Assembly: GCA_951406725.2 (NCBI GenBank)
Contig: OX597821.1
Location: 110,236,001 to 110,300,000, forward strand
From: Octopus vulgaris
Taxonomy: Eukaryota
DNA length: 64,000 nt
Reading direction: 5' to 3'
Part shown: positions 2,434 through 46,640 of the stretch, one piece after another
Numbering within the stretch: position 1 is the first letter of the stretch
Layout of the letters: each line of letters starts with the position of its first letter
Notes under the pieces: generated by a model
The model's database searches: none
Told to the model about the DNA's origin: nothing
What the model saw: the letters and a program-made list of their open reading frames with translations, nothing else
Translations under genes and position numbers: made by a program

Positions 2434-2522
<89 letters not shown>

Positions 2523-2529
<7 letters not shown>

Positions 2530-3402
2530 AATAAAATATATGCATATATATAAACATATATGTACGTACCTACCTCTACATGTACATATACACGCATATA
2601 TGTGTACAGGACACCAAAAAGACGTCGAACACATAGAGAGACGAAAAACATAGACACAAACCAAGGAACAAGACAGGCAAAAAAAAGAGATACAGGACAA
2701 TAAGCACAACGAAAAATCCCCTTCTTCAGTCGCTAAAGTTTCATCTACTAAACGTTTCGAAGGATAAAAGCGAGACGTATACTTCGAATGAAAAATTCCT
2801 TCCTGCGAAAAGCAAATCAATTAAAATTCTGAGATCTTTTCGCAGAGGGGTAAAAAAAGCAAGACGGTAACGACAGTACAAACATATAAACAGTAAAAAA
2901 TATATATATAAACAGTAGAAAAATAAATATATAACAGTGAGAGACAGGACAAGGAGAACAAGATAAGAAGGGCTGTTAACGCCAGACGAAAAAAGTATTG
3001 CAAACGCTGGATTATAGTGGACGACGAGAGAGGAAGATGTCGACCAGTGGCCTTAGAAGGCGGGCGAGAAAGGACAGGATAGCAGTACGACGGAAGTAAC
3101 GTCGCAGATGGACGACGGGAATGGGGGAGGAGGAGCAAGAGGAAGAGAGAGAAGAAGGGGAATGGTGCGAGGAGACCATGAAGAACAGTGAGGGGGAGAG
3201 AGAGAGGAAGAGACAAGTTAAGTGAGGGAAAAAAAGACGAAAAAGGGAATGGGAGAGAAAGAAAGAAAGATGCAGAGTCGCGTGAGAGTTAATATCAAGG
3301 CGAACTTGATAAACAGAACAATCTTACTTAATAGGGTGCGTGCGTTTAGTCGTATAATATGTTAATAAAATATATGCATATATATAAACATATATGTACG
3401 TA
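2523..3402 (-). mobile_element. Non-autonomous ribozyme-bearing retroelement (Penelope-like/retrozyme-like, family 1) with 46-bp terminal direct repeat
   Basis: ATATGTTAATAAAATATATGCATATATATAAACATATATGTACGTA occurs at 2523-2568 and 3357-3402. Both ends abut (TA)n. It carries the hammerhead-like motif and is homologous to about 15990-16375 in the opposite orientation. Confidence 0.7.
2718..2850 (-). ncRNA. Putative hammerhead ribozyme with non-canonical pseudoknotted topology (family 1, copy 1)
   Basis: Minus strand: CCCCU-[CUGCGAAAAG..CUUUUCGCAG]-GAAGGA..UUUCAU..ACGU C^UCGCU-UUUA-UCCUUC-GAAACGU..AUGAAA..AGCGA-CUGAAGA-AGGGG. Core CUGANGA, GAAA and GUC are intact. Predicted cleavage is between 2774 and 2773. 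Confidence 0.75.
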
Positions 3403-3414
3403 TATATATATATA

Positions 3415-3679
3415 ACGGGAAGCTTTATGAAAATAGACAAAAGACGAAGGCAGGTGGAAAACAAACGAACAATTGTATTAGTATGGCGCTCAGGAAATAT
3501 AAATAAAACAAGTCTTTAACGTTTCGAGCCTACGCTCTTCAACAGAAAGATACACAGAGAGAAAAAAACACAGAAAGAAGGAGAGAAAAAAATGCGTGCA
3601 GTAACTAACGAACCAACATGGCGATCTGATTTCGGCCAGAAGTCAAAGATCAAACATGAGACGCGAGAGCGAAATTAGG

Positions 3680-3680
<1 letters not shown>
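3415..3680 (-). mobile_element. Penelope-like pLTR remnant with minimal hammerhead (about 3512-3550)
   Basis: Minus strand: TCTTT-CTGTTGA-A-GAGC-GTAG-GCTC-GAAACGT-T-AAAGA (stem I TCTTT/AAAGA, palindromic stem III); flanked by (TA)n. Confidence 0.65.
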
Positions 3681-5854: not shown

Positions 5855-8423
5855 CCCATTCGTGCTGAAATTTTTCTAGTGAATGAAATTACCTGAAAAT
5901 GCACAGATATTATTATTTTGACCCAAATAACATCTGAAATAAATTTCATTGAAATCCGTTTGATATTTCCTGAAATAATCACTGTCAGTTATAACATACA
6001 TCACGCACTGTGCATATGAATCTTTAATAAGCTTGTTAACTTTGCAATTTACTTATTTAGAGTATAATCAAAGTATTATATCTGACCATAGCTTTACTAT
6101 GAAAATGATTCCTCTTCACATAAATAAGATATCAAGGAAAACAGAAAATTTATTTAGTAAAATATATCCTTTTGAAATGAAACTATTCAGCTTTGCTAAA
6201 CATGATAATTCTTGAAACATTTAGGATGAACTGCTACATCACATTTTTTACATATGAAATGACGTTTCCCAGAGCACTCATTGCATCTCCGTTCATTTGG
6301 AATATATTCAATCCAGTGCTCAACACCATCATACCTTGCATTGTCTTTCAAATTAGATGTGCGTTTTCTTTGTTTTCTTTGAAATTTTGGAGTGCCATAC
6401 TTTTTCATTAGAGTTAGAGACATGTTTTCGATGAAATTGCATAATGTAATTTTGTGCCCTGCTCTATTCATCAAGATGCATGAATTTCGGGTTGCCACAG
6501 ATACAAAATATGACAAAATAGGACACCATTTATTTTGCCACATTAGAATCCTATAGGAACCGATCTTATGACCCAGAAGGTCAGCAAATCCCATATATTT
6601 GTTGTAATTTTGGATGTTTTCAGGCTGTGGAACTGGAACATATTTCTTTTGAGGCCTGTCATAGCGCTCAACCGTGGACATTTTATAGGTTTCAAAGTTC
6701 GATAGCAGAACAACATCGTTATTATCTTTCCATTTCACAGCGACTATATTTGAAGTGGACTTGAAGTCAGCTGCCCCTCTGAGGCGTGCTTTCATTTCAG
6801 TTTTCGTTTTGAAAGGACATCTAGCTGTCTTATTTTCTCTGCAGGTTCTCGATGCACAGATTCCTTTCTCAAAAAGTTTCTCCATCACTTGAATACTTGT
6901 GAAATAATTATCAAAAAATATTTCGAAACCTTTACTGTCTGGTGCTCCTACAGCATCAATGAGATCAAGGACAACGTTCCCACCGAGGCCAAATGCATTT
7001 TCGGTTTCATTGGGACCGTCTTTCTTGCCAGTGTAGATGTCAAAAGCATGTATATTTCCCTGTTGACAATAAAGGACCCAAATTTAGAAACTAAACCGAA
7101 TTGGTTTCCCTTTTATAAATTGTTTGGCATAGGGCTTGCCATAATATGGAGCCATACTTTCGCCAACATAGATGTTCTCCCAAGCCACCATATTCCTTGA
7201 ATTTTCTTTTTGTAAGTGGCCAGGTAGAGGTCTGAGTTTGAATGCACGATCGTCTCCTGAAGCATTGGCATCATCCACTAAATGGATATTTCTTAATATA
7301 CTCTCAAATCTGTCTCACCTCATGCTATTTTGTAAACTTTTTGGAACATTGTCTTCAGATGACCACTGCCTTCTTTTATTAGGAAGTGGACAGTGAGCTG
7401 ACAGAAGCAATCCACCTGAAGAATTCATACAGCTCTGATTTGTATACATTCAGAACTTTACCGTTTTGTACAGCATATCGGTTTGTTTGTTCTACAATGT
7501 CATCCAGTAATTCATCTGTGGAGAACAAACTAAATTGGATAATACTGGATTCGAGCAAGATTTTGCTTCCTCAGATATATCTACAGGCTCATATGAAGTT
7601 GAAACACGATTCGCCGCTTCGTTTTTCTTCCAATCTCTTGTTTTACTGAATTTAGTTTGTTTTAGATTTCCTGTAACTTCTTCAATTTCTTCAGGCACAT
7701 CCTGTTGACAAGAAATTCGTGCGTCAGTTTCCACAAGCCCTCTTTTCAGTCGAACCGAGGAACCTACAGCCTCATCATCTGAAGCACCACTATCGCCATC
7801 GAAGAGTTCTATATTGTGAAGGAGACCAATGTGAACATCGCCTCTGTTGCTCAGCTCTTCCAATAATGCTAGGGCTTCTGTTGTTTTAAGACTGAAAGAA
7901 AAAATTACAATGATATAGAGATGTGTGGACGCAAAATTTATTGTAAATAAAAACCAGACTATTTCAAATAAATCATATTGGCTATTTATAATGCGAAACT
8001 ATATCAACACCTAAAATATTAGGTGAGTTGTTTTATGTCTAAGTTTGCTGCGGATGTCCGTTATAAAAGACAGGGTGTTATATTTTATTTTGTTTACAAC
8101 ATAAATCTCAAATGGTAACAAATTATGCATCTCACCTATGATCATAAAAACACATAAGAGACCACAACAATGCCTACATGATTAAATAATTATAAATGAT
8201 TGGTTCACCATTTACCGCGCGTCCTGCTTGTACTCGCCACGTTGCTCAACTGTGGTTGTTACAAGTTATAGTGTAAGCATTTATTCAAACAGACTGCATG
8301 CACGTTAAGAACATGTTTCATTCTTTGATACAGATCATACACAAATCATAATTTGTATCAAGTATTTGTTTTATACCCTTATAAATTAAGTGTCAGTTTA
8401 ACCGGACGACCGGCATGAATTGA
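5855..8423 (-). mobile_element. piggyBac DNA transposon (PGBD3-like), decayed
   Basis: TTAA at 5851-5854 and 8424-8427. Imperfect TIRs CCCATTCGTGCTG and (rc) TCAATTCATGCCG. Contains a fragmented transposase. Confidence 0.88.
6196..7890 (-). pseudogene. piggyBac transposase pseudogene (frameshifts/stops)
   Basis: Motifs ESMAPYYG..KQFIKGKPIRFSF, WKDNNDVVLLSN, NYNKYMG..DL and the C-terminal cysteine-rich domain RRCNEC..FICKKCDVAVHPKCFKNYH, spread over ORFs 7492-7863, 7084-7278 and 6196-6888. Confidence 0.92.
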
Positions 8424-15769: not shown

Positions 15770-16375
15770 CACACTCCTCCTCATCTCTCTCACAACCGGC
15801 CAAATACTTCCTTTTGCATGCGGCCTTCTAACTGTAAATACACGGCTTTCTTGCGCTCCTTGAATCTCTCTTCGTCTAGGCAAAAGAGGCCATCTTTGGT
15901 TGTTTTCTTGTGTGTTTTTATTTCTTGTATTGTACTTTTATTTTGTATTTTATTTTGTATTTTATTTTTTATTTTATTTTGTAATTTTATTTGTATCGTT
16001 TTTACGTCCTGTTTGTGTCACATTTTGTTCTTTCCTTGTTTTTACCCCTCTGCGAAGTAATTTCCTTTAATTTCTTCGCAGGAAGGGCTAGTTCGACGAG
16101 TCGTGTTCTGTCCTCACCTTCGAAACACGCTGGAGTTGAACTAGGGACAGCTGATGAAGGGGATTTTTCCTTGTGTAGTTTGTCTAGTACTCTGTTTTTT
16201 CTTTGTAAAAAAAGGTTCGTTCCATGCTCGTTTTTACGTTTTCGTTCTCGTTGAGTTCTGCGTCTATTTGTGGTGTCCTGTACTCACGTATATATATTTA
16301 TATATGCATGTATATATACATATAGATGTATGTACGTACATATATGTATGTATGCATATATTTTATTTATTACAC
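15770..16375 (+). mobile_element. Ribozyme-bearing retroelement family 1, copy 2
   Basis: Homologous to the reverse complement of 2523-2860 (GGGGATTTTTC.TTGTG, GGTGTCCTGTAC, GTACGTACATATATG, ATGCATATATTTTATT); 3' end abuts (TA)n. Confidence 0.65.
16045..16162 (+). ncRNA. Putative pseudoknotted hammerhead ribozyme (family 1, copy 2)
   Basis: CCCCU-[CUGCGAAG..CUUCGCAG]-GAAGG-G-CUAGUUCGAC..CGUGU U^CUGUCC-UCA-CCUUC-GAAACACG..GUUGAACUAG-GGACAG-CUGAUGA-AGGGG. Predicted cleavage after 16107. Confidence 0.78.
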
Positions 16376-18795: not shown

Positions 18796-18847
18796 AATAC
18801 AAAAAATGAACAAGAACGCAACAGGTGACAGCAAGACATTCAGACAG

Positions 18848-18969
18848 TTTCTTTCCTCAGTCGAGTTCCAGATTTCTTTGCAGTTTCATCCGGTTATACT
18901 CGAGACTGCTCCAATCTGGCCAGCCACAAGGTAAATCTAAGCTAAGAGCACTAGATTTCTTGGAAGAAA
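18848..18969 (-). ncRNA. Putative pseudoknotted hammerhead ribozyme (family 2, copy 1), within repeat ~18793-19120
   Basis: Minus strand: UUUCUU-[CCAAG..CUUGU]-GGCUGG-CCAGAUU-GGA-GCAGU C^UCGAGU-AUAA-CCGGAU-GAAACUGC-AAAGA-AAUCUGG-A-ACUCGA-CUGAGGA-AAGAAA. Predicted cleavage between 18904 and 18903. Confidence 0.75.
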
Positions 18970-22679: not shown

Positions 22680-22802
22680 TTAGTTTCCTCAGTCAAGCTC
22701 CAGATTATCTTTATAATTTCGGCTGGTTATACTCGAGATTACTCCAACCTGACTAGCCCCAAGGAAAAACTAAGCTAAGAGAACTAGATACCTTAGAAGA
22801 AA
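22680..22802 (-). ncRNA. Putative pseudoknotted hammerhead ribozyme (family 2, copy 2), within repeat ~22563-23050
   Basis: Minus strand: UUUCUU-[CUAAGG..CCUUGG]-GGCUAG-UCAGGUU-GGA-GUAAU C^UCGAGU-AUAA-CCAGCC-GAAAUUAU..AAUCUGG-A-GCUUGA-CUGAGGA. Compensatory and wobble changes relative to copy 1; P0 is decayed. Confidence 0.72.
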
Positions 22803-33064: not shown

Positions 33065-33975
33065 TAACATCTGATTTTCAAGGAGAAATTATTGGAGCGG
33101 AGATGGCTGGAGCATCAGTCACTAGAACTACAGAATTGTTTAATGCTTCGAAAGTTAGTCTGTAATAGGATACTGGCATTCCAAAGCCTAAGTAAATTAG
33201 CTCTGCCAAGCATAATTCATGACGGAAATCAAAGCTAGCAGAGTGGGGCAGTAGGAGAAAGAAACGAATTTTGTCTAAACGCCACCAAAATTTGACAGCA
33301 AAATGACAATAGAGCTAACCCACTACCTAACCAATCCTGTGGCGTCTTGAGCTCCATAAAGCTGGATGGCATGGAAGATGGACAATTGTTAAACCTCTCC
33401 TGTCCCCCATCAACACTGAAGAGTGAGAAAATGGTGCCTAGACTATCAGAAATGGTAAACTGCTCAGCGGAACAATATCCTCTATGATTACAAGGCGGCG
33501 AGCTGGCAGAAACTTTAGCATGACGGACTTTACGTTCTGAGTTCGAATTCCGCCGAGGTCGATTTTGCTTTTCATCCTTTCGGGGTCGATAAATTAAGTG
33601 CCAGCTGCGTACTGAGGTCGATTTGATCGACTGGACCCCCTCTCCTAAAATTTAGGGCCTTGTGCCCAGAGTAAGAAAGAATGTCCTCTCTGATGAAACT
33701 TCATTCACCATTTCTCACTTCGGAGCGAGTTTATGTTTAAAGACAGATCAAACAAGCATTTGATCCTGACTGATTGGCCCCTATCCTGAAGAATGGAGGT
33801 AGATCCCTTTGGACTTCGGCAGCAGCTATATCACGGTATTCTCTTGACCCTGTAATTGTTCTATATGGCAGAGTTAACGCCTAGGATTATTCGAGTATTT
33901 TGGTCGATCATGTCACTCTTATGATACTAACATTGTTTCCTAATGTCAGTACAATCTTCCACGACGATAATACAA
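33065..33975 (+). pseudogene. Tc1-type transposase remnant with inserted SINE (33494-33680)
   Basis: IIGAEMAGASVTRT, LHKAG..KPLLS, SDETSF, KNGG..GRVNA.DYSSILVDHV..IFHDDN. SINE TSD AATATCCTCTATGAT/AATGTCCTCTCTGAT. Confidence 0.8.
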
Positions 33976-33981
33976 ACTTCT

Positions 33982-34106
<125 letters not shown>

Positions 34107-34112
34107 TATTAC

Positions 34113-34153
<41 letters not shown>

Positions 34154-34164
34154 GTATTAGTATT

Positions 34165-34335
34165 GATACATCGATTAGAAAGCATTTTTTCTTCTTGATC
34201 TCTGACAACTATATCTGGCCTATTGGCCTTAGTTTCTCTATCTCTGTGTATTGACATGTCCCAGAGTACGGTTGCTTCCTCATTTTCTGTGACCTTTTCT
34301 GGCGTGTGCCTATACCATCTTTTTGCTGTTGCTAA
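34165..34335 (-). mobile_element. R4/Dong LINE RLE-domain fragment between (TAA)n tracts
   Basis: WYRHTPEKVTENEEATVLWDMSIHRDRETKANRPDIVVRDQ. Confidence 0.85.
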
Positions 34336-34343
34336 TATTATTA

Positions 34344-34434
<91 letters not shown>

Positions 34435-34659
34435 CATCATCATCATCATTATTCAAAATTGGTTTTAATGCGGCGAGCTGGCAGAATCGTTACCGCGCTG
34501 GGCAAAATGCTTAGCGGTATTTCGTCCGTCTTTACGTTCTGATTTAAAATACTGCCGAGTTTGACTTTGCTTTTCATTTTTTCGGTGTAAATAAGTACCA
34601 AAAAGTCTCTCCACAGTATTTTATTGCAAAATAAATATTTATAAGATGGTATAAGACTA

Positions 34660-35075
34660 CAAAAGAATATAATAGACTTTACAAGACTCCAGAAAAACTT
34701 TATAAGAGGTGTTGAAATACATAAGCTGACTCTTCTCCACATGTTTTGAAATACATCTTGGAGAGTCTGATGTGGAATGGACCGTGTGAAGGTTATAATT
34801 GCGTCTTTTAGCTCATTAATGGTTTTTCGGGTGATTCTTGTACACTGGTCCTTTATTTGCAGTCTGGCAGTGTTAAATCAGGTGATCTTGGTGGCCAAAG
34901 TCCCTTCGAAACAATCTGTTCACCGATAAACTCTTGAAGTAACGCCACGGTGATGCGCAAAGTATATGCTGTAGCTCCATCTTGCTGAAAGTATGCATCA
35001 TTACTTTCACTTTCAGTGAGTTGGCCTACAAATGGATAGACAATATTTGAGCAATATCTCTCGGTGTTGATGGTG
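34660..35075 (-). pseudogene. Tc1/mariner (rosa-like DDxD) transposase C-terminal fragment
   Basis: TINTERY..YFQQDGATAYT..GLWPPRSPDLTLPD; 38 residues lie between the last two aspartates. Confidence 0.8.
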
Positions 35076-35556
35076 GAGGGGAAGTCTTCAAAAAGTTCAC
35101 TGCGGAGAGACTTTTTGAACATCCGGTATGTACCTAACTGAAATAGGCACAGGGAGTATTGTGGTTCACTGACATTCTTGCTAACACCTATCCTGCATGA
35201 CCGCAGCCCAATAAGTGAGACCAGCGAAAAGAATTCTTTAAAAAAAAGTGGAATGTTCGTGATTGCAAAGCGGGATTCTCTACTACAAAGAGATGCCTGC
35301 AGCTATGGTAACAGGATAAAAAAAAGGAAAAAATTCTGCCGCTACATGAAATTGAACCAGGAAATATTTGACTGAGAACGAGTTTCTTGACATCACAAGT
35401 ACGTTTAGGCCGATGGTAAAACATGCAAATTCTTTGTAATGTGAGAAAGAGACACTGACTTGGTTAAGAGAAATCTCAACAATGATGTACACACCACACA
35501 CACCAACATATATACATACATACATACATACATACATACATACATACATACATACA

Positions 35557-45124: not shown

Positions 45125-46640
45125 TGATAAGTGGTATGAATGCCAACCGTTATCAATCACAGACAATGATCAACTGACAATCTGTACCAGTGGTTCTCAA
45201 CAAGGGTCCATATAAGATGTTGCTGTTAAAGCTTACGTGTAATAAATTAGTTACCCTAGGGCGGTGAGCTGGCAGAATCGTTAGCACGCCGGGTGAACTG
45301 CTTAGCAGTTTTTCGTTTGTCTTTACGTTCTGAGTTCAAATTCCGCCGAGGTCGACTTTGCCTTTCATCCTTACGATGGCGAGCTGGCAGAAACGTTAGG
45401 ACGCCGGGCGAAGTGCTTAGTGGTATTTCGTCTGCCGTGACGTTCTGAGTTCAAATTCTGCCGAGGTCGACTTTGCCTTTCATCCTTTCGGGGTCGATAA
45501 ATTAAGTACCAGTTACGCAATAGGGTCGATATAATCGACTTAATCCGTTTGTCTGTGCTTGATTGTCCTCGCTGTGTTTAGCCCCTTGTGGGCAATAAAT
45601 AAATAAGAAACGTTAGCATGCTGGGCGAAATGCTTAGCGGTATTTCGTCTGCCGTTACGTTCCGAGTTCAAATTCCGCCGAGGTCGACTTTGCCTTTCAT
45701 CCTTTCGGGGTCGATTAAATAAGTGCCAGTTACGCACTGGGGTCGATATAATCGACTTAATCCGTTTGCCTGTCCTTGTTTGTCCTCTCTGTGTTTAGCC
45801 CCTTGTGGGTAGTAAAGAAATAGGTATTTCGCCTGCCGCTACGTTCTGAGTTTAAATTCCGCCGAGGTCGACTTTGCCTTTCATCCTTTCGGGGTCGATT
45901 AAATAAGTACCAGTTACGCACTGGGGTCGATATAATCGACTTAATCCGTTTGTCTGTTCTTGTTTAGCCCCTTGTGGAAAGTAAAGAAATAGGTATTTCG
46001 TCTTTCTTTACGTTCTGAGTTCAAATTCCTCCGAGGTCGACTTTGCCTTTCATCCTTTCGAAGTCGATAAATTACGTATCAGTTGCGTAATCGACGGGAC
46101 CCCCCACCTCCCCCAAAATTTCGGGCCTTGTGCCTAGAGTAGAAAAGAATAAATTGGTTACGCTTCTACAATTCACAAAATATTCTAATTGTTTTTATAC
46201 AATTTCTAATGATATTTAATTATAAAATTATATTTTTGGAAATACCGAATGGCTGTAGAGGTCCAGCAGTGTAACATAGGAATCAAAGGTGTCCATAGAT
46301 AAAAAAAATGGTTGAGAACTATTGATTTACACAGATAAGAAGTTGTAATATTATCGATTAGCTATCACTGTTTTCCAGAAAGAGACTAAAAAATGGATCT
46401 TCATTGACATAGCTGAACCAGAAGACGAGAACTTTATAAAACCGGAGAAAGCGGAAAGGCATCAAGACCTGGCATAGGGCCTCAAGAGCGAGTGTAATAC
46501 TCATCGAGATTGGGGCACTTGGAACCATCTCAAAGAAGACTGAAACCTAGTGCGAGAAGTTGGAGCTACCAGACATCGTTGGAAGCACATAGTTGGCGGT
46601 CATAGTCGAAACAGCGCATGCGTTGTGAAGAGTGTTTGCG
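45125..46640 (+). mobile_element. R4/Dong RLE fragment containing a hAT-type MITE (~45188-46324), which contains a tandem SINE A array (45259-46150)
   Basis: DKWYECQP before the MITE, WIFIDIAEPED..IEIGALGTISK after it. MITE ends CAGTGGTTCTCAAC / GTTGAGAACTATTG. Array TSD AATAAATT(A/G)GTTAC. Confidence 0.8.

Follow-up and report, generated by a model that had tools for sequence, protein, structure and literature searches.

Metazoan non-LTR retrozymes are described, in the accessible parts of two sources (PMC7229834; bioRxiv 10.64898/2026.07.22.740005), as carrying a type I hammerhead ribozyme in a unit of ~170-400 nt with a GC content under 50%, and as being expressed as linear and circular RNA of unit length. 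For hammerheads of type SGC, Eckert et al. (2023; PMC10085705) assume, in the available text, that the CUGAnGA block cannot be split, and the same text gives no SGC ribozyme in the genomes of known organisms. Among the Penelope-like elements, Craig et al. (2021; PMC8557442) report, in the portions of the paper at hand, Naiads that are without canonical hammerheads, that prefer (TA)n and that have left remnants in cephalopods, and they also describe non-autonomous, head-to-tail Chlamys derivatives.

The element studied here lies in a 64,000-nt stretch of octopus DNA (the window), from a genome of 2.8 Gb, and it is a variant of the non-LTR retrozyme. As in the metazoan non-LTR retrozymes, as far as those partial texts go, it is non-coding, has no LTR features and is low in GC (40% in the unit), its units stand head to tail with a hammerhead in each, its dispersed copies range from monomers to multimers, and a circular intermediate and a Penelope-like helper are proposed. 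It differs from them in a unit of 834 nt against ~170-400, in a hammerhead that is not type I, and in a strict (TA)n target with a single fixed 3' end. Since neither the type of hammerhead nor the unit size is that of the described group, the element is not a plain member of it. When the unit was folded as a circle, 47% of it was predicted to be paired, unlike the highly self-paired circles of the retrozymes known from the same texts.

The whole insertion occupies positions 2523..3402 of the window on the minus strand and comprises a full 834-nt unit together with the 46 nt that begin a second pass. An exact 46-bp direct repeat bounds it (2523-2568 and 3357-3402, offset 834, not extendable on either side), just as a sequence-only reading of this DNA had reported, and the other observations of that reading on the locus were reproduced. 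There is no credible ORF (the longest stop-to-stop frame inside has 155 aa and is of low complexity), (TA)n adjoins the element on either side, with ~23 repeats at 2477-2522 and 6 at 3403-3414, and the predicted ribozyme is internal, at 2718-2850 on the minus strand. The first copy of the repeat (2523..2568, minus strand) is the fixed sense 3' end of the family, where a T-rich run and AACATAT lead into the TA tract at 2477..2522, the target at the sense 3' junction. The second copy (3357..3402, minus strand) is a partial second unit and represents the variable 5' end of the window copy; it stops at a TA dinucleotide beside the (TA)6 at 3403..3414. This (TA)6, at the sense 5' junction, is likely the leftover TA tail of the neighbouring repeat copy at 3415-3680, into which the window copy was probably inserted. 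The neighbour (minus strand) belongs to another short repeat family, with further copies near 801 (minus), 17839 (minus) and 40752 (plus), which ends in (TA)n and has a type I hammerhead in the ordinary, minimal form of the Penelope kind.

The split ribozyme is also present in three older carriers in the window, at 16045-16170 (plus), 22680-22800 (minus) and 18845-18965 (minus); one of them, with 74% over 286 nt, is a family A relative, and the others belong to family B. That all four ribozyme-bearing copies have their sense 3' end at a (TA)n tract, as had been claimed, was confirmed, with (TA)5+ downstream of each of them. The distance from GAAA to this tract is 233 nt for the window copy (2758, minus strand), and 257 nt (16122, plus), 159 nt (22720, minus) and 94 nt (18887, minus) for the others; as background, 27% of random positions reach (TA)5+ within 330 nt. 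No tRNA was found in the 64-kb window, and Rfam gave no ribozyme and nothing at gathering level in it, the matches by E-value being to simple repeats only. Elsewhere in the window, the frames at 6196-7083, 34449-35302 and 33946-34452 (all on the minus strand) resemble, by sequence motifs, what we take to be piggyBac-type, mariner-type and HERO-type fragments, and a tandem repeat array at 45266-46084 (periods of 115-217 nt) is presumably SINE-like.

Searching the genome with the unit returned 2,024 candidates, and the best 40 loci scored contained 49 near-full matches at 98-100% identity, most of which continue into part of another unit. A 39-mer near the 3' end has at least 899 exact matches in the genome, with none in the control. 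Ends were mapped on 71 insertions from the first 100 of the 899 39-mer matches, an anchor chosen to avoid a bias towards long copies. The 3' end lay beyond the fetched stretch in three insertions, which left 68 resolved (one insertion ends at unit position 350), and in 65 of the 68 the sense 3' end falls no more than 10 nt from unit position 1. It runs into TA repeats in 67 of 68 insertions by eye, and a strict pattern detects this in 60 of 71. The 5' ends, in turn, are scattered over unit positions 30 to 834 and adjoin TA in 48 of 71 cases. The unit junction is crossed in 33 of the 71 insertions, and head-to-tail arrays reach ~3.6 units, some 3'-anchored insertions having three. Dispersed over many chromosomes, the copies of this young family number in the hundreds, and in them one end is fixed and the other variable. 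A second copy in facing orientation is present in 2 of the 71 insertions, and inversions at the ribozyme in 3 of 94 older copies; at loci L210/L211 and L232 the two copies stand 3' end to 3' end, with a short gap between them.

Because the 3' end is fixed and the 5' end may fall anywhere, the 46 nt are just the stopping point of the window copy, and across copies the redundancy varies between 30 nt and over two further units. A fixed 46-nt LTR was rejected, since the 5' end varies among the 71 insertions. The sequence-only reading had proposed a non-autonomous element derived from a circular or tandem RNA and targeted to (TA)n; these parts stood, as did its multi-copy nature, and what had to be given up were the fixed 46-nt redundancy and the circularly permuted ends, because in the collected copies only the 5' end varies. 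A 46-bp repeat produced by local duplication, which it had named as the contrary outcome, is excluded. More generally, it is very improbable that local duplication, an assembly artefact or a DNA-level satellite gave rise to these copies, the ribozyme-like motif being incidental. Such an origin would suit a microsatellite-rich genome, where gene conversion might homogenise adjacent units, but it is contradicted by the hundreds of dispersed copies and the polarity of their ends, as well as by the compensatory changes in the core helices and by more than 17,000 motif matches against 46 in controls, both detailed below.

Unit-versus-unit comparison was possible in 41 insertions with overlapping units. 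Units within an insertion differ at 51 of 18,430 positions (0.28%), against 1.5% between insertions. Rare variants, present in at most two of the 41 insertions, are shared with the neighbour unit in 27 of 45 cases, compared with 28 of 1,903 in the control with other insertions; the remaining 18 of 45 have no neighbour match. The low divergence and the shared variants indicate that one template was read repeatedly, and a circle read more than once is, judging from these copies, most likely that template, as the simplest account of the homogeneity of the units. About 56 of the 71 insertions traverse the predicted cut, which lies just 251 nt from the priming point, so that a simple linear RNA running from cut to cut could not be the main template.

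Other linear templates, belonging to the same element and copied by the same helper, seem unlikely. They would be either an uncut multimer transcribed from a tandem master, or a cut monomer whose 5' and 3' ends are kept together by the ribozyme's own stems, with the enzyme jumping from the former to the latter. Multimer masters do exist, for two or more whole ribozymes are present in at least 14 of the 71 insertions and three units in some, and these masters are homogeneous already; the excess of ends near the cut, described below, reflects either linear 5' ends or stalling at that place. Yet the 27 of 45 rare variants shared between units include many in copies less than two units long, and arrays of three or more units would require all ribozymes to stay uncut. 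As for the jump, template jumps frequently add bases, whereas 48 of 50 young anchors keep the sequence over the cut intact. The circle is accordingly kept here as the preferred template.

The ribozyme at 2718..2850 (minus strand) is a predicted hammerhead of reversed order with a split core. Reading along the minus strand, it begins with an upstream splint (2798..2850) made of strand a (2850-2846), a hairpin (2845-2803) and strand b (2802-2798), which starts with the G of the conserved G10.1-C11.1 pair. The cleavage block (2769..2778) follows, with a stem III strand, the GUC triplet, the predicted cut at 2774/2773 and a stem I strand; next comes the segment at 2751..2763, with the stem II strand (2763-2759), GAAA (2758-2755) and a stem III strand. 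The last segment (2718..2744) holds the interaction strand (2744-2739), whose partner is at 2793-2788, a stem I strand (2734-2730), CUGAAGA (2729-2723) and strand a' (2722-2718). The minus-strand order of the blocks, cleavage site, GAAA and CUGAnGA, is the SGC order of Eckert et al. As in the type-SGC hammerheads of the available parts of PMC10085705, the S-G-C order is accompanied by a conserved core, by stems I and III and an interaction helix, by a short linker between stem I and stem II, and by an extra helix that ties other strands. Unlike them, the stem II strand lies upstream of the cleavage block and not after CUGAnGA, two further helices close the gap, and many thousands of copies are predicted in one animal genome.

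Conservation of this arrangement was evaluated at the level of the core, the stems and the genome. The copies keep CUGAnGA, GAAA and UH with H other than G, with the triplets GUC, GUU, GUA and AUC; a G at H is barred by the descriptor itself, and the alignment column likewise shows no G. Pairing in stems I and III and the interaction helix reaches 91% across 20 copies of family A, against 30-44% in slid controls, and compensatory changes occur in 11 of the 17 pairs, while a shuffle test on the family A stems was inflated by the relatedness of the sequences. A descriptor with stems I and III was matched by 48 of 50 young anchors, 56 of 94 copies of family A and 23 of 30 of family B (shuffles ~1%), many of the misses being truncated copies. 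In the genome, exact motif patterns gave 4,788 and 12,539 matches versus 0 and 46 in the controls. Pattern matches in metagenome and viral contigs (34) were taken as chance, the stems being present in 0 of the 29 anchors tested.

In the proposed stem II, the partner of the strand before GAAA lies upstream and begins with G, the strand after CUGAnGA has its partner still further upstream, and the hairpin sits between these two partners. The three junction helices are 95% paired in family A, although two of them are partly fixed by the search pattern. The junction recurs in families B and C with wholly different sequence, and was detected in 26 of 57, 8 of 23 and 12 of 18 core-positive copies (shuffles 1-3%). 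A direct stem II of at least 4 bp after CUGAnGA can be formed by none of 30 family B anchors, by none of 30 family B/C anchors and by 77 of 96 of family A; in family A its energy is -9.6 versus -20.3 kcal/mol for the junction. According to these pairing and energy models, families B and C could not build stem II directly, and in family A such a stem would be weak. The fold of lowest predicted energy for the ribozyme region differs from the catalytic one, and the program that produced it cannot form pseudoknots. The predicted ribozyme is, in this modelling, a reversed-order hammerhead with the stem II strand shifted upstream and closed by a four-way junction, which places it outside the six published orders. 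No published description of the split order was found in the open-access literature; related motifs may be contained in the supplements to the Eckert et al. paper and to the bioRxiv preprint. A kink-turn fits families B/C and the Naiad tails by eye, and not clearly the window copy. Naiad-type 3' tails with the same split fold were seen at loci L397, L408 and L413 near 1500.

The 5' ends of family A, mapped by BLAST with the TA flanks masked, are unevenly distributed around the predicted cut. In 25 of 94 copies the start falls in the 11 nt on the 5' side of the stem II strand, which places it on the cut or shortly past it, against 6 in the next 29 nt, an excess with a p value of 1.6e-8, or of 1e-5 without seven rearranged copies. 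In a separate 3'-anchored sample, whose loci are partly the same, 11 of 30 copies start, by eye, within ~25 nt past the cut, while the preceding 60 nt contain a single start, and five further 5' ends lie inside the GAAA block. The young subfamily has 6 of 71 starts in a 20-nt interval that was picked after seeing the data (p 0.011). This cliff of 5' ends at the cut site suggests real RNA ends. Most of the piled-up ends lie 3-10 nt past the cut and few exactly on the site, so that part of the pattern, the five ends inside GAAA included, may come from an enzyme that stalled in a tight fold.

Comparison with the Penelope-like elements bears on the enzyme. Like Naiad and other elements of this group in the accessible parts of PMC8557442, the octopus element has a partial tandem, pseudo-LTR anatomy, a fixed 3' end and a (TA)n preference; unlike them, it has no ORF, no tail of 30-40 nt was seen (and none of 22 nt or more in 107 loci), and it showed no 3' similarity to an intact partner in the two families compared. 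The same split fold can be recognised by eye in the Naiad tails, in agreement with the 'half core' notes of that paper. An autonomous element with RT and GIY-YIG domains and the same ribozyme, for which the earlier reading had recommended a search, was not found intact: the Naiads recovered were remnants, and the intact Penelope-like families carry a different motif of ordinary order. In the genome, Penelope-like copies with open frames of 781 and 784 aa recur, forming two families. The 781-aa protein has RT and C-terminal GIY-YIG domains together with the CX2-5CxxC linker of Neptune and Nematis, and in each of the 8 copies fetched with this frame the 3' end is fixed and lies at (TA)n, two of them also carrying partial terminal repeats, one of 379 nt and one of 241 nt. 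Besides the open 781-aa RT plus GIY-YIG frame, the element at L121 379-5166 (G000:C16:20835000-20841500) has a 359-aa frame upstream of it, a pseudo-LTR of 379 nt and the degenerate core of a type I hammerhead, and it exists in many near-identical copies. No sequence similarity was detected between the 834-nt unit and the two intact Penelope-like families, 3' end included. Since their anatomy and (TA)n target are those of the studied element, the helper in trans is, by analogy, likely one of these intact Neptune/Nematis-like families, the fold of the ribozyme being of the Naiad kind.

An intact Naiad or HERO-type element missed by the searches, which would fit both the Naiad-type ribozyme and the TA target, is quite unlikely to be the helper. 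Five Naiad consensus sequences in the accessible supplement of PMC8557442 have a 3' end in which the split fold is readable by eye, and two of the five are from octopus and listed there with (TA)n preference; matching tails occur in the genome, where L397 and L408 pass the descriptor, and the genome searches score only the best candidates. However, the Naiad-like pieces recovered with an endonuclease query among the best candidates scored (~14) all have frames of at most 183 aa, and cephalopod Naiads are remnants in the available text of the same paper. A search with a back-translated Naiad motif gave one fragment, and the Naiad pieces in the genome match the published octopus Naiad sequences by eye. 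Moreover, no coding frame joined to the ribozyme was found within ~1.5 kb in 257 anchors and 60 further loci, and the sole nearby HERO-like frame is a separate element ending in (AAT)n. The Neptune/Nematis-like families remain the favoured helper.

We consider it probable that the locus holds a young non-coding retrozyme, with an 834-nt unit that is likely cut by the predicted hammerhead and likely circularised; its copying into TA repeats is likely the work of a borrowed RT and endonuclease of the Penelope type. At loci with two whole ribozymes, double cleavage would free an RNA of unit length, which would then be ligated into a circle. The endonuclease would nick a TA tract, and the nicked end would pair with an AU-alternating spot of the RNA, thereby fixing the 3' end. 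The 3' end of the family coincides with such a spot, so this pairing would set the 3' end without a free RNA end. The enzyme would next circle the RNA over a variable distance, with the 5' end being joined at a short TA match, and RNA that was cut and left unligated may account for the surplus of copies starting just 3' of the cut. In these terms the window copy would represent 1.06 turns; because it has one ribozyme, it would not free a circle alone. A bolder proposal, which we put forward tentatively and hold to be somewhat doubtful, is that a seventh hammerhead wiring, with the catalytic strand open between A9 and G10.1 and closed by the four-way junction, cuts in vivo and yields the 834-nt circle. 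This ribozyme would have been born in Naiads and would have outlived them in octopus on non-coding circles that are now copied into TA by a different Penelope clade.

The element is real and mechanistically informative. If the proposals above are true, retrozymes would extend to a ribozyme type missed by the standard type I-III descriptors, with more than 17,000 motif copies in one animal genome, the published assumption of an unsplittable CUGAnGA block would be broken, and the missing ribozyme of the Naiads would be supplied. The locus adds a carrier in which the priming site is fixed, the number of turns varies, rare variants are shared and the helper has probably changed, and the first three of these features offer a testable model for how Penelope-type pseudo-LTRs may arise from circular templates.
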